A stretch of 48,897 bases of DNA, counting the filler, from Circinaria calcarea (Eukaryota): NCBI GenBank assembly GCA_051942165.1. It is 2 parts of 2 records of this genome, joined end to end, with 100 filler letters (N's around TTAATTAATTAA, not from the genome) between each part and the next. Parts side by side here need not be neighbours in the genome. Positions count along the whole stretch, not along the records: positions 24,535 to 48,897 come from JAVECS010000105.1; 1 more part is not named here. One strand, 5' to 3'. The position numbers and the translations under genes are program-made. Shown here piece by piece: positions 19,805 through 45,528 of this stretch; the stretch's first letter is position 1; each line of letters starts with the position of its first letter. The notes under the pieces are model-generated. The model ran no database searches. It had not been told where the DNA came from and saw only the letters and a list, made by a program, of their open reading frames with translations.

Positions 19805-21818
19805 TCATGATGTGGGTAAAGTAACTTGCTGCACTCCATCGGTCACAGCGTCTACCAACTCCGTCCCGGCTTCCACCGGCGCTGCACCTTCTACCGCCGT
19901 CCCTTCTATGCTCTTTTCTTCCGCCTTCTTCGCTCTCTTGGCATCCTTTTTCGCCTTCTCCGCAGCCTTCTTCTCGGCTTTCTTGGCAGCAGCTTTGGCT
20001 GCGTCCTCCTCCCTTTTGAGCCTCTCCGCTTGGGTACCTCCGAACATTTCTCTCCATTCGTCCTCTTTCTTGGGGTCGATTGGCTTGAAGAGGTATTCGG
20101 CCTTTCCGATCTCGTGGCCTGGCTTAATATCGTCAGCGGTCCAGTGGTCAGGTATAAATAGGAATGGTGCGTTTAGTTGCTTGAGAATTGATTTTGATGT
20201 CCCAGGGAGATAAGGCTCGAAGATGCTGGCGCATAAGAGAATCAAGTTGACCGCAATACCGGTGACTGCTGCGGCCTTTTCTGGCTCATTTGCGGCTAGC
20301 TTGTTATCGAAGCCGTTGTCCTGCAAAAAGACATTGCCTTCCTGCGCTATTGCCATAGCGCTCTGCAGTCCCGCTCTTAATTTAACGGATTCGAGATCTT
20401 CAAGATATCTCTGAAGGTGCTTGTTGACTTCTTCCTTGACTTTGTTGAAAATTGGATCCGAGTGCATTTGGGTATAGTCCGGAATGATTGAGTTGTAGAT
20501 CTTGCTGTTGACCAACTTGATAACCCGATTCACAAAGTTACCGAGCCGAGCCACTAACTCGCTGTTATTCTGTAGGATGAAGTACTTCCACTCGAACTGG
20601 GTATCGCCCGTTTCTGGTCGGTTCGTGAGAAGGTAGTATCTCCATACATCTGCAGGTACGCCTGTATCCTTGGCGTTGTTGCCGAAGACTCCAACGCCAC
20701 GGGACTTTGAGAACTTGCCATTCTCATAATTCAAGTACTCGGTGGTCGAGAGATGATGCAGTTTAGTCCATTTATCACCGGTGGCCATCTGGCAGCCAGG
20801 AAATATGACAGTATGGAAAGGTACATTGTCTTTGCCCATGAATTGAAATAGTTGAACATCTTCTGGATTTCTCCACCATTGCTCCCACTCGTCTGTGTAG
20901 TTCGCAGTAATAGAAACGTACCCTATGCATGCATCAAACCACACATAGAAAACTTTATCTTTGTAGACTTCTTTATCCTCTTTTTCTGTAAAAACGTCGA
21001 GAGGTACCGGCACGCCCCATTTCAGATCCCGCGTTATACCCCTGTCTTTAAGGCCTTGCTTTAGCCATGAATTTGTTATTATCCTCCCATTGCTTGACCA
21101 TGCCCCCTTTTGACTCGCACTATTGACCCACTCCTCTATTCGGGGCTGGAGCTTATCGAGCAAGAGATGGATGTGCTTTGTATCCCGAGCGACTGGCGTG
21201 ACGTCCGGGTCTACTTTGCATCGAGGATTGATCAAATCCAGCGGTTCGTAGTCAACAGATTGGCATTGGTCACACTGGTCTCCACGGGCATCTTTATACC
21301 CGCACTTGGGACAGGTCCCCTCGATGTACCGATCAGCGAGAAAGGCTTTGTGCTTTTCACAGTACGGCTGTCTCGAGGTCTTTTGTACCGTAAAGTCCTG
21401 GTATAGTTTACGGAAGATACTCTGCGTTATATCCTTTTGCTGAGGTGTTGACGTACGGCCAAAAATGTCGAAGCCAATCTCGAACCACTCGTAAATCTCG
21501 GCATGAACTTTGTAGTATTTATCGCATAGCTGCTGGGGACTAACGCCCTCTTCGAGGGCCTTCGTCTCCGTGGCTGTGCCGAATTCATCTGTCCCACAAA
21601 TGTATAGAGTTGGTCGACCTCGGGCCTTGTTATACCTAGATGTTCAGCGCATTTCCGAGAAGGGTTGAGTGGTTTTCTAACCTTGAGAATACATCGGCGC
21701 TGAGTACACTTCCGACAATGTTTCCAAGATGGGGCACGTTGTTTACATATGGCAGGGCACTGGTGATTAGGATGTTTCTCTCGCCTTGCTTCGGCAGGGT
21801 CTTGATCTGCGCTTCCAT
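19805..21818 (-). CDS. MES1: Cytosolic methionyl-tRNA synthetase; 1 intron
   Basis: [18 protein letters not shown] (HIGH), zinc-knuckle cysteines, [19 protein letters not shown] (KMSKS). Confidence 0.97.
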
Positions 21819-23618: not shown

Positions 23619-24434
23619 TTAGCTAATCATACTCCTCCTCGCCATCTCCATCGCCCCTTCCCTCGTCTTATTTCCCCCAATAAATCCACTAGCATGCACA
23701 AACACGCATCCCTCGATCCCGGTCTTCTCACTCAGCTCCTCATCCCGCACACCCCTCCACTCCTCCCTTAACGGCCTCCTACTCTCAAAACTATCTTTTG
23801 TGATACTGACGCATTGCACGCGCCATTTCGCGCCCTCGTTGGGGCTTTCGGGGTATAAAACATAGAGTACCTTTTCCTCGTCCGGTCTCGATGCTTCAAG
23901 AGAGTAGAGATGGTCTTTCCAGGGCACGCCACCATTTTTGAAAATCATTATTTGGCCAGAAGGGTCGTTTTGGTGGCGGAGGTTATAGGCGGAATGCACA
24001 AGGGTTCGGGCGGGAAGCCAGGCTTTGTGGTAGTAGGCAAGTTTGCGCAGGAACGTGGTGCCCATCAGCGATGACGCTTCGAGGAAGCGGGCGTCTTCTT
24101 CGGCTTGGAGTTGGTCGGGGGTCTTGTTTTTAAGGGATTTGGGAAGGGGGTCTGATGGGTTTGACGGTTCTTCATCATTGTAACTGTAATTCAGGTCGCT
24201 GACCAGGCTACCGAGCGTGACGCCGGAATCGTTGAAGCGCTTCTGTAGGGAAGCCGCCGATGCGGGATCGTAGACGGAGATGCCGTTGTCATTAGCGTCG
24301 AGGGCTTCGATAAATTCGGAGTAGATTTTTTCATGGAGGACGGACACTTCGGGGCTAGATTCGGGAAGGGAGGTTCGGTGCGCGATGATGGGTTTTCCAA
24401 AGTGGAGGTAGACGAGACCGGCGGAGGAAAGTTT
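23619..24434 (-). CDS. MYG1: MYG1/UPF0160 family exonuclease; 5' part lost in the assembly gap
   Basis: KLSSAGLVYLHFG, EALDANDNGI, PWKDHLY, FESRRPL..WRG.RD, FVHASGFIGGNKT. Confidence 0.93.
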   Translation of the reverse strand, partial: KLSSAGLVYLHFGKPIIAHRTSLPESSPEVSVLHEKIYSEFIEALDANDNGISVYDPASAASLQKRFNDSGVTLGSLVSDLNYSYNDEEPSNPSDPLPKSLKNKTPDQLQAEEDARFLEASSLMGTTFLRKLAYYHKAWLPARTLVHSAYNLRHQNDPSGQIMIFKNGGVPWKDHLYSLEASRPDEEKVLYVLYPESPNEGAKWRVQCVSITKDSFESRRPLREEWRGVRDEELSEKTGIEGCVFVHASGFIGGNKTREGAMEMARRSMIS

Positions 24435-24534
24435 NNNNNNNNNNNNNNNNNNNNNNNNNNNNNNNNNNNNNNNNNNNNTTAATTAATTAANNNNNNNNNN
24501 NNNNNNNNNNNNNNNNNNNNNNNNNNNNNNNNNN
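24435..24534. other. Artificial scaffold linker N44-TTAATTAATTAA-N44
   Basis: Exactly 100 nt, symmetric, with stop codons in all six frames; it truncates genes on both sides. Confidence 0.95.
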
Positions 24535-25856
24535 AGGTCCGCATGACGAACCAGATCTTTAGTGCTCGGAATCTCCGAGATAATCCGATTCCCCAGTCAC
24601 GATAATCGGTAACTTGGCCGGAGTCGGAATATTTGTTCTGAAGGTAGGATGCATTGCTGGACAAGGGGTTGGTCAATTGTCTCCGTGACTTGACAAAGAG
24701 GCAGCTGAAGACCGGTCAGACATATTTCGGCTGCATCGACTGAATTCCAGAGAAGCCGGATAGGTGGTACTGTACCTTGCGTCTAGGGTCACAAGAAGCC
24801 ATTTGGACATGTTCATATTAAAACTATCAAATGCCTCAAAATTCTCTGTGAGATGTTTGTATTCTTCGAATAGCAATGCTGCTCCCGCATAGGCAGCATC
24901 AACATGTGTCCAGATTCTTGGATGAGCCATGAGTACCTTGGCAGCTTCATCGAACCTATCCACGGCACATGTGGTTGTGGTCCCTAGAGTAAGTGTCAGG
25001 TAAAAAGGCTCAAGCCCATCATGATAGCACCGTTCTATCGTATCTTGAAGGCTACTTCCGGTCATGCTGAATCGATCCTCGATTCTGACCGGTACTGATC
25101 GATATTTTGTACCAGCAACCAAGGTGGCCTTTTGAGTGCTACTATGAGACATCTCACTTCCTAGAGCCACCAGCCTTGCTCTTTTCTGCGAAATGGCCAC
25201 CTCTTTTTCTTCGCCTTCCAGGTGCGATGTAGCTTCTTCAAGGTACCTATCCCGTGCGGCGATCATGACGATAGCTATTGCCTCGGAAGCAGAAGCATGA
25301 ATCACTCCTCCTCCATTAGTGAAAGAGAGGTAGCACGCTGGCAAGTGAAGGAGCTTAGCCAGCCAGTCCAAGACTATTATCTCGAGTTCAGTGGCGGCTG
25401 GCGAACATTCCCAATTAAAGCCTGGAGCGGTCAAGGCTGCCGAATACAGTTCGCCAAGTATACCCGGATATGTGGACGGAGAAGGGAAAAATGCCATGAA
25501 GTGGGGAGATTGCCTAAAAACTCAGTGAGCACTTCTTGTCCTTATATGGGTTTCTCGATGATCGATCTGAAACGGGTGGGAGGGTGTCACCAATGGACCA
25601 TTCCGGGCATTATTTTTGACTCAATATCCTGCTGAATATCCTCCCACTTCTCGCCAGATTGGGGAGGGCCATCCGGGAGAAGCTTTCCAAGGTAGCCCGG
25701 CTTGACATCAGGGACAACACGACGATCTTGGACAGTGTCGTAGTAATTGATGACTACTAGGATAAGTCAAGCAGTCAAAGTAAAAGAAACAGAGGGTCGG
25801 TACAGACTTTCGTCAATGGCAGCATGTGCGGCCCGCCGAAACTCATGAGAGTTCAT
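24535..25856 (-). CDS. PLP-dependent group II aromatic L-amino-acid decarboxylase-like protein; 3 introns; 3' end in the gap
   Basis: MNSHEFRRAAHAAIDE, V.PGYL, HWQSPHFMAFFP, SPAATELE, HSS, HVDAAYAG, PLP lysine in NMSKW, DYRDW...RRFRALKIW. Confidence 0.92.
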
Positions 25857-27141: not shown

Positions 27142-29045
27142 TTAAACCTTTTCTTCTATGGCTTCATTACCATCTGTGTTACGACGAGATCTCTTTGTAA
27201 ATGAGCGGCCGGTGAAGATAAACTGAGAATTCTGATCAGCTAATCTCTTTTGCCAGTCCATCCGAGTACATACCACCGGTATGGCGCCCGATGCATTAAA
27301 TACACCTAGTACCAGTGACATAGTGCCCCAGCCAGTTCTCATCGCAAGGATCCCGGCGCAGAATGGTGCGAGCATCGATGCAAGGGCCAGCGCACACGTA
27401 TACAGTGCGAAGGTTTGTCCGTACGGGCCAGTTTTTCCGAATATGCCGGGTTTCTCTCTTTCCAGTCTCTCGACGACATATGTCAACTCCGCTCCCAATG
27501 GCGATAGTAGAAAGCTGAGAGGGATCCCTATGGACACAAAAAGAAGTTAGAATGGATCTAATGTTCGGGCATTCGGGTGAGAAGCGGTAGTGACGAGTGA
27601 ACATACCAATCAAGGTTAGTAGGACGCAAAGAAGCACAACCTGGCCCATGCCATTGTGTGTGACGAGTCTGAGCAGTATCATGGGGGGTGCCGGGAGAAT
27701 CAATCCGCATATAGAAAACCAGCGTGGCCCGTACCTGTCAGACAAAGCCCCAACGAGAGGTGAAAGGAGAGCAGGAAGAGCGATGCAGAGCGAGATCAAG
27801 CCAGCGCCAAGCGAATTCCAGCCGAAGGTATTCTGAACAAAGGGGGGGAGGACGGCATTGAAACTGGCTACAATTGCATATTCTATGAAGATCCCATATA
27901 GAGCCGCTAATAGTCGAGGACTTTTCAAAAGAGTTATCAATGGGGGTGTCTTGGAGGTATGTTTAACCGTCGAGGACTGTTTTTCATCCGGGGTCGAACT
28001 TGAGGATGACGTCTCTACACCCGAACTCGTGGCTTGTTGGATGGTACTGCTCTGATATTTGGCTTGAGTATCGCGCAAATGCGAATCCTGCTCTAGTGAT
28101 GTTGCACTCTTGGTACTAAGGTGCTCACTCGTCATGCTTGGGCTTGGCAACGACCATTTCCTCGCGTGCTTTCTTTCTACCAGAATGAGCCGCAAAACAA
28201 TGTCGAGCCCAACCAGCGCAAACAGCATAGCAAACACAGCGTAGTATCCAGCTTTTGCATACACTACACCACCCAGGAGAGGCGATACGAGGACCCCCAT
28301 ATTCGCGCTTGACTCGAAATATCCTATAAATTGGCCGATGTCCTTGCGATCCACAGTATCGGTAAGGAGAGCGAGTCCGATGGCGAAAACAACCGAGGCG
28401 GATAAGCCTTGCAGGAAACGACTGACAAGGGCAAAGTAGATGTTGGTGGCGACGCAGAGCAGTGCTGTTCCTGCACCAAGCATCACGAGGCCCACGAGCA
28501 GGGGTACACGTCGAGACGAGCAACGATCGGAAAGCCACCCAAAAATAGCTTCCCCAATTATCAGTATCAACATTCCTGCTCAAGGAGCAGTTCGGTGACT
28601 TACGAGAACCAACCAAAAGACCGAACCCATAAGCAGCGAAGAGTAATGACGTCCAGAGTTGCACTTCACGTCCACATCAGATACCTCCTCTTTCAAGGAG
28701 AATGTAAAACGCGCTGCAGAGCACAAACCTTTATCCTTTGAGACCTCGAAACGTTCAGTTATCACAAACGGAAGGATAGGAACAATCTGGGAATAATGAA
28801 TAACAAAACACCTTCAACGATGTAGCTGTGGGAAGTCTCACGACACCGTAGAAAAAGCCATCCTAATCCCGGGTTGTTAGCAGCTCTAAAGTGATGTATG
28901 AAAGTAGTGTATTCCCTGAGCATACCGTGAAAACGGCCATGCAGACCGCTAATAAGATAGTCCACTTTGATGATCTAAATTCGAGCAGTAGCGGCGCCTT
29001 TTCTACTTTTGACCCTTGTACTCGAGAATGCCGTTGAACAAACAT
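27142..29045 (-). CDS. MFS transporter of the fungal vesicular amine transporter-like (SLC18-like) group; 6 introns
   Basis: EFRSSKWTIL..AVFTDGFFYGVIVPILP (TM1), motif A GWLSDR..SRR, SRFLQGLS, GALSDRYGPR, GPYGQTFAL. Confidence 0.82.
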
Positions 29046-29730
29046 GGTCGAAGCCAAAGAGATAGCTTGAAATGATATAAAAAATTGCACACGAGTTGAA
29101 TATTCAGAAGAACGATGCCCCGAATCTTGCCTATGATATAGCAGATACTTGGGAATAATGCGAAGAGCTTGTGGGTATGGGAAATACCGGGGACCATGAA
29201 TACATATATATTATATATGCTAAGAGTACGGTATTATATATCGTAGATCTCTTGGCATATGGCTATATACTTTAGTGAGCTGGAAAATAATATGATAACC
29301 ATATTCTCCGCAATTTTTTTGTCCTCTAGGGCTACACCCTCAACGCCATATCGAGTAGGTGTGATATTGAGTAGCGTGGCCGCTCGACTTAGGAAATGTG
29401 CAACCAAACTTGCAAACGTCAAGCCATCAATCCGCCCATTCATAAGACTCACAAGCGGCACGAGAAGCTTCCGAATAAGCACAAGACAGCCGTACGCTGT
29501 AAAGTAATAGGATGCTCTACACGAGAAGAATAAGTACACCAAGGCCAATCGGGATATTCGCTCCGAGACGAAGTGAAATGAAGTCCACACGGCCATGGCC
29601 GAATATCTCCAGTCTCGGGATGAACAGCATGATGGTTGCCAACTTGATTGATAGAAGAGTCCTCCATTATGCATTATGATATCATCCGAGATGAAGTCTC
29701 GACTCCTCGGCAGAGCTCTGCCAACTACTA

Positions 29731-29917
29731 CGGTAGAAGGCAAAACAATTCGTAGCTTCTTGGCAGGCTTGGCAATGCTGCTTTCATGTATAGGTAATAG
29801 ATTTCACTGCCGAATGTCTACGCTCGCATAGTAAATCATAATAGGTGGCCCTATAAATTGGCAAGAAATTAGCCCTTGCAAGATCTGCAGCGCTACGAAT
29901 TGTTTTGCCTCCTACCG
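29731..29917. mobile_element. 187-bp Tc1/mariner-type MITE, 26-bp TIRs, TA target duplication
   Basis: TA|CGGTAGAAGGCAAAACAATTCGTAGC ... GCTACGAATTGTTTTGCCTCCTACCG|TA with 1 mismatch between arms; no coding capacity. Confidence 0.82.
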
Positions 29918-30012
29918 TAGTATGGTAAAGAATGGAAATGGTGTTAGGATCTGGCGCTAGGCAGGACGGGGTTAGTTCTCCCGCCCAGACCAATTATCTA
30001 TTTATGCAAGGG

Positions 30013-30268
30013 CACGCGGGTGACAAAAATTCTCGACATACCAAAACTCCGCCCCATCTAAATTCTACGCAACACCACATACAATTACTTAGTAGGTGTA
30101 GGGAAATTCGTGATTGAATTTGTGATTCCAAGAATAGGAGAGGTGACTCGACGTTTCCTTGGTATTTTGCATAGAATTTGTATGTGGTGTAGCGGAGAAA
30201 AGTCGTTGTGTTGCGTAGAGTTAGGTGGGGAGAAGTTTTGGTGTGTCAAGAATTCTGTCACCCGCGTG
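30013..30268. mobile_element. 256-bp non-autonomous TIR element, CAC...GTG termini, ~60-70-bp TIRs, 5-bp TSD AAGGG
   Basis: AAGGG|CACGCGGGTGACAAAAATTCTCGACATACCAAAACT ... AGTTTTGGTGTGTCAAGAATTCTGTCACCCGCGTG|AAGGG. Confidence 0.82.
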
Positions 30269-30538
30269 AAGGGGTCCAATCCGGTGTGGAACGGCTGATC
30301 AGCCATCCGATATTGGCCACCCCTTTTCGGGGGGTTGGAGGAAGTTAGGTAGTCATCTGATGGAAGGTTTGATCGGCGAATAGCTGAAACCATATCGATA
30401 TCTCCGGTAGGAGTGGCGGCATAAGTATTCAAAGTCTTGCTACGTGGGCTAACGGGGGGGGGGAAGACCTGTATTTTGAAACAAGATGCCATAGCGTTTG
30501 CCGCCAACTAGAGACGAGGGGCCGAGATAGTTACTAAT

Positions 30539-32219
30539 TTACTTCTCCTGACTAAGTTCACCACTCTGCTTTTTGCTCCCCATATCAGCCTGGCGCCTTC
30601 GCCGCCACCATTGCCAGACCGCGAAAACTAGACCCGTCAAAGGAATGGTGATGACAAAGTAGTACCACAGCTGTGGCGCCGCATTCAAGGTAGTTTGCCC
30701 GGCTCGGTTCGTACCAAGGCTGAAAAAGACCATACTAAAAACTGCCTGCGGAAGATTTAGTGGAACGTATTTGCAAGACGCCAGAGCATAGATAGCTTAC
30801 GGAAATAAACGTGCCTGGCAGAAAAATCATGGTAACAGCAGCAATGGTAATCATCGACGAACTGTCTCTCTTGGTTTCGATGGCGATTTTGGAAGTAAGA
30901 TTTGCAATATCCAGATTATTACGGTTGTCCATTTGCGAAGCGATGCTGAAAAAGAGATTCATCATAAGCTGCGTACGTTCCCCATAATTAGCTATCCATC
31001 GCTTCCAAATACGACAGCGAGAGCTCAGGAATTCCAAGTTTTCGATAGCCGGATATAAGGCAGGCGTTTGAATGGACGAGCTAGAGGTGGAGTTCGACAA
31101 GACAGATTCATGCTTTCGGGCGATTTCGATAAGGAAGTCGAGACGTTCTCGCAAGTCCTCCACATCTTCAACAATCGTACGGAAATTTCTGAAGAGGCCG
31201 TGTAATCTCTCAGTTGCAGATGGGGTATAGATAATGGACTGTAGGGGAATGCCTTGTCCGCCATTATTCTCCTTCAAGCCATTTTAGCATAACCGCATTT
31301 AAAGCCTTCGTACTAACATACTATAATAGAAATAAACATACCCAGTCTAGCAAAAGCTCTCTCTCTTCGTCTACCAAGGCTCTCCATGAAGAGGCACATT
31401 CATTCGCGATTAGCAAGTCGATTACGAAGGGACAGAACAGCGGAATGTGGGTATCTTGAGAAGCGGCAGATCGCAGTATGTCGATTTTGGCACCTTCTGG
31501 ACAATCAACAAGGAAGTATGTCGACGATCCCGTGTCCATCTGATGGGAAAACCATACACTCGCCGGTCCTGTGTCCGTCCACCCATTGATGTATTGATAG
31601 AATCCCTCTTGACACAGCAATTAGTCAAGATGCGGTGGTTATTCTGAGTAAAATATATATACCAGTTGCTATAAGTTTCTGGCCGGTATCAAGTCTAGAG
31701 AAGCTTCCGTGACCAGCCTTAGCCCATGGACTAGGTTCCAGGGTACTTTCCAGGAAAGGGAGTGAGAACTTAAAACGGGAACAGAGCCGCTCTAGGGTGT
31801 TTTTTTCAACATGTATTCGATAAGGGTTGCGCATATCTGAAATCTTCAGTCTTTACATTTATTTATATCAGACAGAATGCCCAACCCTGATGACTTACCA
31901 AATCCATTTCGAATCGAGGTAATGAAACTTAGATGACCCCAGTAAGCTTTAGATTCCTCTGTTATTGAGGCTACGCGCTCACAAGACTCGAAGCGTGGGA
32001 GTGACGGGATCCTGGGCGATGTTAGCTCTCTGCCACGGTTAATGGGAAACCACCAACCATCAGATATGGTAGTATTCCACTATCATCCAGTCCCGGGTGC
32101 CAGACGGGGGATGCCCCCGGTGATAAATTCAGCTCTAGGACATCAATCCGCGTGTTCGCTTGCTCCAGCCCACTGCGATCTAGCAACTCTTGAATCGCCG
32201 ACTTGGAGTTTAGTGCCAT
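30539..32219 (-). CDS. Fungal CorA-like (Mg2+ transporter C-terminal domain) membrane protein; about 5 introns
   Basis: Coiled stalk, then KRDSSSMITIAAVTMIFLPGTFISAVFSMVFF and a second TM WYYFVITIPLTGLVFAVW; the canonical GMN motif is replaced by SMV. Confidence 0.75.
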
Positions 32220-34779: not shown

Positions 34780-36246
34780 TTAAAACGGTAATGCCCCTAA
34801 GAAACTGTCGCCGAAATCGTTCCTCGCCAGTTCACTTACATCTGTTCCAGAATCGCTCCCATCATCCGTTCCGGAATCGCTCTGAGGTCCGTAACGATTT
34901 CGTTGACTGATCCTCCAATCTTCTAGATCGGGGTACCTTCCCTCAAGCCGTTCCCAGTAAACGTCCAGGACCGTTGATCCTTGTGTCAGGATATGCAAGT
35001 TGGACCGGGGTCTAATGGTTAGCTTGTCTTTGTAGTAGGGAATGATATGTGGTTTACCAATCATCTTCATGAGATCGAGGACGGTGAAGTCTGGGTCGGT
35101 TGAAGACTGCATGCAGAGCATCAACACGTGTGCTGATGATGCCTCATGGGCAAAGTTCAACAAGCCGATGATGAAGTCGGCCCATGCACCGATGTCTTGC
35201 GCATCCAGTGAGCCGGGGTGCTGACGCATTTCGATGGTCAGAGTTGGGTCCCGAGGGTTATCTTCGTGCATGGCCACAAGAAGGTTCTGAAAATTATAGG
35301 CCCACTCCCTGGTTCGGTTAGGGTTAATCATCTGCATGAGAGAAGGAATGTCGCTACACTCCTCAATCCGTAAGAGCCGTTCCATCATATTCCAACACTC
35401 GAGCTTGCTGCTCGTAGAAGGGGATTTGGCGAAGATTCGGCAGTCGAGCGAAAGCATATAATCATCCGGGTACAAGGATTCGATGGTATGCTCGAATGCC
35501 GTAACCAACTGAATAAACTTTCTGACGGTGTTTGCCGAGTATCCCCTACTTTGGTTACCCGCATGTATGTGCAATGCGGTAGTGTTGTTTGGAAACGCAT
35601 TGAATTTAGCGTGGATGCTGCCCAAGCCAGTTTGAAGCTCTTGAAAGCCTTCACTACCGTATGGTAGAATCCGGGTAACGATTTCTGTAGCAAAAAGCAT
35701 TTTCTCTTCTTCGGCACCTACTTCTGGTTTGCTTTCCTCTTTCCTTTCCTCCTTGCTAGATGTTGATATGTCCTCACTAGTTGATAGCTCTGATGACTCT
35801 CCCCGTGCTCGTCGGCGTCGTATGTCGTCCATTTCCCTCTCCTCTCTTGTGAGTCGCTGTTCCAGGGTAATTCTTTCCATCTCCAAAACCGCGGCACATT
35901 CCTTTGGAGTCAACGGCCTGACGGAAGCATCGTTCTCGACTGTCCACTTTGAATAATCTGGCCTACCAGCAATATACTCGGGGTAAGCTTCGTTATTCCT
36001 GGGATGAGTCGGATCATTTGTCGGGATCCCTGCATCCGTAAGGACGCGACTTATAGTGTAATGAACTCGCTCGCGATCCGTCTCTTCTTCTTCTTCAGCC
36101 TCGCGGCCCTTCAATCGTCCATCCGAATATTTAAGGTACTGGTTCTCCCAATCTGCGCGAAAGCTTTGGAACTGTTTGCGAGTCACCGCAACTACGCATT
36201 CCATTTCAACGCCGAAGGTAAGGTTCAAGCTGGGTTCGAGAGACAT
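34780..36246 (-). CDS. Putative amidoligase (Amidoligase_2-like carboxylate-amine ligase); no introns
   Basis: TFGVEMEC, W.V..DAS, EIVTRIL, N.T.ALHIHAG, YNF.NL, TIEMRQHPGSLD. Confidence 0.8.
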   Translation of the reverse strand: MSLEPSLNLTFGVEMECVVAVTRKQFQSFRADWENQYLKYSDGRLKGREAEEEEETDRERVHYTISRVLTDAGIPTNDPTHPRNNEAYPEYIAGRPDYSKWTVENDASVRPLTPKECAAVLEMERITLEQRLTREEREMDDIRRRRARGESSELSTSEDISTSSKEERKEESKPEVGAEEEKMLFATEIVTRILPYGSEGFQELQTGLGSIHAKFNAFPNNTTALHIHAGNQSRGYSANTVRKFIQLVTAFEHTIESLYPDDYMLSLDCRIFAKSPSTSSKLECWNMMERLLRIEECSDIPSLMQMINPNRTREWAYNFQNLLVAMHEDNPRDPTLTIEMRQHPGSLDAQDIGAWADFIIGLLNFAHEASSAHVLMLCMQSSTDPDFTVLDLMKMIGKPHIIPYYKDKLTIRPRSNLHILTQGSTVLDVYWERLEGRYPDLEDWRISQRNRYGPQSDSGTDDGSDSGTDVSELARNDFGDSFLGALPF

Positions 36247-44879: not shown

Positions 44880-45126
44880 GGTTGTTGACTTGGGGGACTT
44901 GATGAGGTGGGTAGGTCAATCGATGCCTTGAGCTGGCCAACTTAAGGAACGCGGGGCCGATTCGATTTCGATTATCACCTTGATGCCAGTTCAGCAAGTC
45001 CCCAACGAGTGTCTGTGAGCTCTCTCACGTAAATGGTAGATGCACATGTATTTACAACATGATCTACTATTGTCAGGAGGATCCAACCCTTCAAGTCAAC
45101 AATGGAGACGTTTTCGGCTACCGTAC

Positions 45127-45528
45127 TACGGTATAAGGCAAAACAATCCCTACGGAGTAGCGTGGTTTTTTCTAACCCCCAAGAACCTCAACCACAACCG
45201 TATAAAAATAATAGTAAAGCAGAGAGCTGTTACAAGCGCATGAGCCGGGGTATTCCTATATTTTTCTGAGGATTTAAAGCGTGGTTCGGGTGTGCTGTGA
45301 GAGCTGTCAATATTTCGCGCTAGTAATTTTTTGGCAAGCGCGAGGGTGTCAGGCAAAAATAAACGCGGACACACAAATCTGCCCGACCGTAGAATTACCG
45401 CCCAGTTCTTGCCACTAAGTTTGTGAGGACTGCGGAAGCTCAGGGGCTTCTTAGGCTGGACGGCATCGCTAACTACGGTCGGCGAATTCTGGGTGTCCGC
45501 GTTTTTTTGGCAAGCGCGAGACACCGTA
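45127..45528. mobile_element. Cluster of Tc1-like TIR relics and a ~180-bp imperfect inverted-repeat element
   Basis: TACGGTATAAGGCAAAACAAT at 45127 resembles the 29731 TIR; perfect arms 45361-45372/45493-45504 and 45383-45392/45473-45482; several TACGGT/ACCGTA ends. Confidence 0.55.

Follow-up and report, generated by a model that had tools for sequence, protein, structure and literature searches.

Gene content and host of the window

The window, by which we mean the whole 48.9-kb stretch of DNA that was analysed, is gene-dense fungal DNA, and its products are an aspartyl protease, MetRS, MYG1, a PLP decarboxylase, two MFS transporters, an amidoligase-like protein and a fasciclin protein. 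The MetRS ORF (19805-21643, minus strand) shares 83% identity with Lignoscripta atroalba and 81% with Xylographa and Bachmanniomyces. Because the named matches listed for MetRS are lichen-forming Lecanoromycetes, the host is a lichen-forming ascomycete of that class. In a public metagenome set (P0001), an 8.3-kb contig encodes a protein with 97% identity to this ORF; therefore, a very close relative of the host has already been sequenced and could supply an empty-site test for the element described below. At 24434-24535, 88 N bases form two runs flanking TTAATTAATTAA at the edge of the MYG1-like ORF, and these runs look like an assembly gap or linker, not biology.

The feature of interest is a 256-bp element bounded by AAGGG on both sides (30008-30273). 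It is intergenic, lying 466 bp past the stop of ORF 30735-31283 (minus strand) and upstream of the MFS transporter ORFs (27296-28676, minus strand). The nearby ORF 29234-29803 (minus strand) gave no family match and does not resemble coding sequence, and no transposase domain was detected among the 21 ORFs scanned of the 34 ORFs of at least 150 aa in the window.

Two other inverted structures were observed in the window. A second MITE-like element of 197 bp (29726-29922) lies 90 bp upstream of the 256-bp element; its 31-nt inverted ends show 97% complementarity (beginning TACTACGGTAGAAGGCAAAAC), and a 96%-identical copy of its terminal 24 nt lies at 45124-45147. Taking CTACGG as its start would leave a TA at either outer end, a signature of the Tc1/pogo type. 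Further along is a 36-nt inverted pair with 81% complementarity (45357-45392/45473-45508), bracketed by two exact direct copies of the 18-nt sequence TTTTTTGGCAAGCGCGAG (45327-45344 and 45503-45520). Such a direct repeat is far longer than a usual target-site duplication (TSD) and could be a local duplication or reflect insertion into a repeat.

Structure of the 256-bp element

The interval 30008-30273 reads AAGGG, CACGCGGGTGACAAAAATTC ... GAATTCTGTCACCCGCGTG, AAGGG. The element proper (30013-30268) is non-coding, and both of its termini are exactly CACGCGGGTGAC. Its parts, with the evidence for each, are as follows (strand in brackets where one applies).

30008-30012: left TSD copy (AAGGG); the left flank ends with the 5 bases that open the right flank
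30013-30268: MITE, 256 bp, non-coding; inverted arms, DNA fold and TIR profile matches
30013-30078 (+): left inverted arm, whose bases 1-17, CACGCGGGTGACAAAAA, are the family-conserved motif; 84.8% identity to the right arm over 66 columns, and position counts over 28 arms
30072-30084 (+): left half of an inner perfect 13-nt inverted pair; BLAST, partner at 30178-30190
30178-30190 (-): right half of the inner perfect 13-nt inverted pair; BLAST, partner at 30072-30084
30205-30268 (-): right inverted arm; repeat search, BLAST and arm comparison
30269-30273: right TSD copy (AAGGG); matches the left flank pentamer

When the region was compared with the window by BLAST, a single inverted self-match was returned (30013-30078/30205-30268, 84.8% identity over 66 columns, E = 5.7e-14). 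The right arm is identical to the left over the terminal 13 nt, after which it carries a 1-nt deletion and differences that are mostly transitions. The repeat search resolved the same arms into a terminal pair of 16 nt at 94% (30013-30028/30253-30268) followed by pairs of 34 nt at 85% (30028-30061/30221-30254) and 18 nt at 89% (30061-30078/30205-30222), together with an inner pair of 27 nt at 85% (30063-30089/30173-30199). As single-stranded DNA, the 266 nt that include both flanking pentamers fold at -63.6 kcal/mol, compared with -26.6 +/- 3.6 kcal/mol in dinucleotide shuffles (z = -10.27), and none of 200 shuffles folded as well. The flanks of the element are identical for k = 5 alone among all k from 1 to 10. 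The arm match, the fold and the flank match thus go far past what chance would give, and both the inverted repeat and the duplication are real.

These results agree in detail with the initial annotation, which had described long imperfect terminal inverted repeats (TIRs), here recovered as arms of ~66 nt, an inner perfect 13-bp pair, which BLAST found at the same positions, and an exact AAGGG duplication, with lengths of 2, 3 and 6 bp not fitting. The A-tract motifs that it had pointed out are likewise present, ACAAAAATT in the left arm and ACCAAAACT in both arms. Its description of the locus as a non-autonomous TIR element is supported.

Within the 48.9-kb window the element is single-copy, as judged by BLAST and by a TIR profile that was derived from 26 arms at other loci and excluded the window element. 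That profile matched just the two ends of the element (E = 3.6e-6 and 2.4e-5), the next best match in the window having E = 1.9. One match to the terminus with 3 mismatches (35550-35565) lies inside the amidoligase ORF and was judged to be a chance occurrence. Overall, the results show that 30013-30268 is a MITE, a non-autonomous cut-and-paste DNA transposon without coding capacity. In its size and setting it may be set beside PdMLE1, reportedly a 199-bp MITE of Penicillium digitatum described by Sun et al. in 2013; both are small ascomycete MITEs in an intergenic or promoter region, and no relationship between them is claimed.

Relatives, target-site duplications and hosts

Relatives of the element were sought by scanning metagenome contigs for both 12-nt ends at a spacing of 215-245 nt, which returned 17 loci that were taken with 1-kb flanks. 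The first 12 nt and a length range of 239-269 bp were imposed by the scan pattern and are therefore uninformative on conservation. Sixteen of the 17 loci are elements that have a common terminal sequence beyond the pattern bases. The remaining locus (L001, 887-1131) lies on a 76%-GC bacterial-type contig, where the same 12-nt ends sit inside a much longer perfect palindrome that extends into the flanks; this locus has no relation to the fungal family and was left out of all counts. After identical sites had been merged (L002 = L005 = L007, from three assemblies, and L008 = L012), 13 independent sites were left, or 14 with the window copy. The relatives are 251-267 bp long, a range bounded by the scan pattern, and no further termini were found in the 1-kb flanks of their loci.

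An exact 5-bp TSD is present at 10 of the 14 independent sites (9 of 13 without the window copy). One further site, L013, has a 4-bp TSD (CCAG), and exact TSDs of 3 bp or of 6-10 bp occur at none of the 14. Flank matches of 2 bp were seen at two sites, both of which have a 5-bp TSD, and matches of 1 bp at seven; since four of these seven are also 5-bp TSD sites, we regard the 1-bp matches as chance matches. The four sites that do not have a clean 5-bp TSD are L013 and three others, namely L010 (flanks GTAGG/GCAGC, 3 of 5 bases matching), L011 (CCAGA/CCACA, 4 of 5) and L015 (CCTGG/GCACG, 2 of 5). As controls, the flanks were compared at 20 offsets, each of which gave 0/14 matches, and in mismatched pairings of left and right flanks, of which 2/182 matched. 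Thus, the 5-bp rule is a property of the family and not an accident of the window copy. The combination of CAC...GTG ends and a 5-bp TSD, which the initial annotation had noted for one element, is not confined to that element: of the 14 independent insertions with the same terminus, which come from several fungal hosts, 10 have it. Relatives having been found, the family consists neither of a lone copy nor of copies whose TSDs are of other lengths, two of the outcomes that had been named as speaking against the earlier reading.

The ten clean TSDs have a GC content of 64% (32/50 bases), compared with 47.5% in the flanks (binomial p = 0.023); G is the commonest base at position 1 (6/10), C at position 2 (6/10) and A at position 3 (5/10). 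With ten sites, this is only a lean towards GC-rich targets. We also observed that several sites of subfamilies B, C and D (defined below) fall in pentamers resembling CCAGC/GCTGG, namely CCAGC at L016, GCTGG at L017, CCAG(C) at L013, CCAGA at L011 and CCTGG at L015, which in this small sample hints at a corresponding target preference.

Several positions that the scan had left unselected are conserved: positions 13-17 are A in 27, 26, 28, 28 and 24 of the 28 arms, respectively, and three positions further in favour one base each, T at 21 (21 arms), G at 23 (22 arms) and C at 24 (25 arms). From these counts the conserved family terminus can be written as CACGCGGGTGACAAAAA-nnn-TnGCAC, in which 5'-CACGCGGGTGACAAAAA precedes a TnGCAC-like box located at about bases 21-26. 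By whole-element identity, the relatives form subfamily A (L002, L003, L004, L008 and L009; 79-95%), subfamily B (L006 and L016; 95%), subfamily C (L011, L013, L014 and L017; 86-96%) and subfamily D (L010 and L015; 62%). The window copy stands alone, its whole-element identity to the others (54-59%) being that of background, and only the terminal ~26 nt are common to it and the other subfamilies. In subfamily A and in the window copy, pairing extends through most of each arm; in subfamilies B, C and D the TIR ends at ~30 nt. A resemblance between the window copy and subfamily A beyond the terminus (CCCC..TTCTACG) was noticed by eye. Because BLAST gave no pair of at least 40 nt with the window copy and the overall identity is that of background, no homology between the two is claimed beyond the terminus.

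Several members are near-identical. L013, L014 and L017, on three contigs of one metagenome, are 94-96% identical and have different TSDs; and L006 and L016 are 95% identical, with the TSDs GCTAG and CCAGC. That copies so alike lie at different sites and carry different TSDs shows that insertion occurred repeatedly. L005 and L012 are two sites within one assembly.

The hosts of the relatives were assigned from the genes that flank them. In subfamily C the flank carries a Fung_rhodopsin domain, for which the nearest Atlas clusters are ascomycete. In subfamily B it carries the start of a NACHT protein, for which the named HMMER matches are all Pezizomycotina, mostly Leotiomycetes, with best identities of 60-72% (relatives in Pseudogymnoascus, Hyaloscypha, Phialocephala and Rutstroemia). 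For this protein the commonest phylum of the nearest Atlas clusters is Basidiomycota, in conflict with the HMMER search, and the HMMER result was followed. The contigs that carry subfamily A reach 677 kb and have 46-50% GC, and the one flank ORF that was searched there had no named relatives. From the flanking genes and the MetRS of the window, it follows that the terminus is common to at least one Lecanoromycete and two other ascomycetes. As a check on specificity, a 20-base terminal pattern was run against 596 Gb of prokaryote genomes and against viral contigs, and neither set contained a hit. Overall, the elements form a genuine MITE family that has CAC...GTG ends and 5-bp TSDs and occurs in several ascomycete hosts.

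Candidate transposases and their implications

The structure of the ends suggests how such copies would move. A transposase supplied in trans would recognise the conserved terminus of ~17-26 nt and cut exactly at the CAC/GTG ends; the two 3' ends would then be joined to target phosphates staggered by 5 bp, and repair of the gaps would yield the AAGGG duplication seen at the window copy. Judging from the end and TSD hallmarks, we put at roughly 0.55 the probability that this enzyme belongs to the CACTA/Mirage/Chapaev/Transib (CMCT) clade, either as Transib proper or as an undescribed sister lineage with a 5-bp TSD. In the parts of Kojima 2025 (PMC12730594) compared here, the CMCT clade is characterised by 5'-CA..TG-3' termini and TSDs of 2-5 bp, and the present family has both. 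The hallmarks therefore fit the CMCT clade, in which Transib is the only named 5-bp lineage; membership is unproven.

Transib is also the group with which the initial annotation had compared the element. In the sections of Kapitonov & Jurka 2005 (PMC1131882) that were compared, Transib elements have CAC ends, 5-bp TSDs, a RAG1-like transposase and a preference for GC-rich targets, and Transib is described as the sole superfamily with 5-bp TSDs. The present family resembles the non-autonomous Transib elements of that paper (Transib-N of insects and sea urchin) in its 5'-CAC...GTG-3' ends, which were observed in the window copy and fixed by the scan pattern in the other loci, in a TSD of exactly 5 bp that is rarely 4 bp, tentatively in a lean to GC-rich targets, and in having small non-coding copies that would likewise be mobilised in trans. 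The arrangement within the TIR differs. The 38-bp Transib TIR is described as a CACAATG-like heptamer and a AAAAAAATC-like nonamer separated by a 23-bp (or 12-bp) spacer (PMC1131882), whereas CACGCGG agrees with the heptamer in CAC and the last G alone, 4 of 7 positions, and the A-run occupies bases 13-17, with the nonamer-like ACAAAAACC in subfamily A at bases 11-19 after a 3-bp spacer. No conserved A-rich box at 12- or 23-bp spacing was visible in the compared arms. The hosts here are ascomycete fungi, and no RAG1-like transposase is linked to the present elements. The Transib/RAG reading may thus be called partly supported: its two cheapest hallmarks, CAC...GTG ends and the 5-bp TSD, hold across the family, and the Transib/RSS architecture of the TIR does not. 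The part of the earlier proposal that stands is that of a little-known DNA transposon family with 5-bp TSDs.

Published reports of Transib in fungi, in the sections of each that were compared, are few. In 2005, Transib transposase was reported among fungi in soybean rust only (PMC1131882), and in 2017 Transib (RAG1, PF12940) was reported absent from a survey of 1,730 fungal genomes (PMC5751038). A list published in 2022 has 20 fungal Transib-like proteins, one of them from the ascomycete Erysiphe pulchra, and TIRs were not identifiable for it (PMC9435367); the Austropuccinia and Erysiphe Transib-like entries in the supplement of that paper are likewise given without identifiable TIRs. CACGCGG strings in this supplement were judged incidental, and its layout in 10-nt blocks could hide matches. 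The 12-nt terminus was not found in a transposon context in the main text of the literature. We consider it possible, and on balance doubtful, that the MITEs represent an undescribed Transib/RAG1-like (CMCT) lineage with 5-bp TSDs that extends across Pezizomycotina, in Lecanoromycetes, probably Leotiomycetes, and others. It is equally tentative that such a lineage would use a compact terminus, consisting of the CAC end and an A-run 5 bp further in, instead of the 12/23 heptamer-nonamer layout.

A credible alternative, to which we give somewhat less than even odds, is that the same MITE is moved by a transposase outside the CMCT clade, be it a fungal hAT5-like enzyme, a member of a known superfamily with an atypical 5-bp stagger, or an undescribed superfamily. 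The TIR that does not have the 12/23 bipartite layout points in this direction, as does the Transib-free survey of 1,730 fungal genomes, which, as far as the sections of PMC5751038 compared here go, weighs against a PF12940-recognisable partner in a family found in several ascomycetes. Several features speak against the named superfamilies. For hAT, the third terminal base is always G according to the Figure S7 legend of PMC1131882, and here it is C; an 8-bp TSD was seen at 0/14 sites. The hAT5 group, compared by its description, is alike in its 5-bp TSD but clusters with animal hAT families (PMC12730594, in the part compared). TSD lengths differ for KDZ (7-8 bp), IS3EU (6 bp) and Harbinger (0-3 bp), and CAC ends with a 5-bp TSD were found in no named non-CMCT superfamily in the sections of the literature compared. 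A TA duplication was present at 0/14 sites and the flanks of the window copy are AAGGG/AAGGG, and Tc1/mariner/pogo was rejected. Within the CMCT clade itself, the fungal lineages EnSpm/CACTA, Plavaka and ESTA described in the sections of PMC12730594 compared resemble the present family in their hosts and in CA..TG (often CAC..GTG) ends, but have TSDs of 3 bp (EnSpm), 2-3 bp (Plavaka) or TA (ESTA), not 5 bp, and the present terminus is neither CACTA-like nor CATCA-like. CACTA/EnSpm was accordingly rejected, with a 3-bp TSD at 0/14 sites, a 2-bp match only at the two sites that also have 5 bp, and a terminus of CACGC, not of the CACTA/CACTG type.

Two further explanations deserve very little weight even when taken together. 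That the element is of integrase type (Ginger2/TDD-like) or an LTR-derived fold-back is highly improbable. TDD-4 and TDD-5 do give 5-bp TSDs (Bao et al. 2010, PMC2836005), Ginger is reported to be ubiquitous in fungi (PMC5751038), and TIRs of tens to hundreds of bp are a further likeness of Ginger elements (PMC2836005); but in the sections of these papers compared, Ginger and Gypsy termini are TGTNR, whereas all arms here start with CACGC, and most Ginger2 TSDs are 4 bp in AT-rich RTATAY targets, compared with TSDs of 64% GC here. The arms of the present elements do not have an LTR-like structure. That the locus is not mobile DNA at all is harder still to credit; on this view it would be a hairpin, either arisen by chance or functioning as a regulatory palindrome or structured RNA, and the 5-bp match of its flanks would be accidental. 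This view would agree with the single copy in the window, but the same terminus occurs at 13 further sites in unrelated flanks, 9 of which have an exact 5-bp TSD, near-identical copies lie at different sites, and the element showed no Pfam signal, 0 matches in Rfam at E <= 1 and 0 tRNA matches.

As it stands, this is a solid but ordinary MITE family with a putative place in the CMCT clade. The conserved terminus of 17-26 nt is a ready-made probe for full-length elements in any ascomycete assembly, and the question of the enzyme is therefore directly testable. If the enzyme proves to be of another kind, then CAC ends with a 5-bp TSD would not suffice to identify Transib, a point of consequence when transposons are classified automatically. 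If the partner enzyme is RAG1-like, a widespread branch of the transposon group ancestral to the V(D)J recombinase would so far have escaped notice in fungi; the family would fill in Transib, the one cut-and-paste superfamily that the compared sections of PMC5751038 report as missing from 1,730 fungal genomes, with a branch whose end signals are arranged differently and which would bear on the evolution of heptamer/nonamer recognition.
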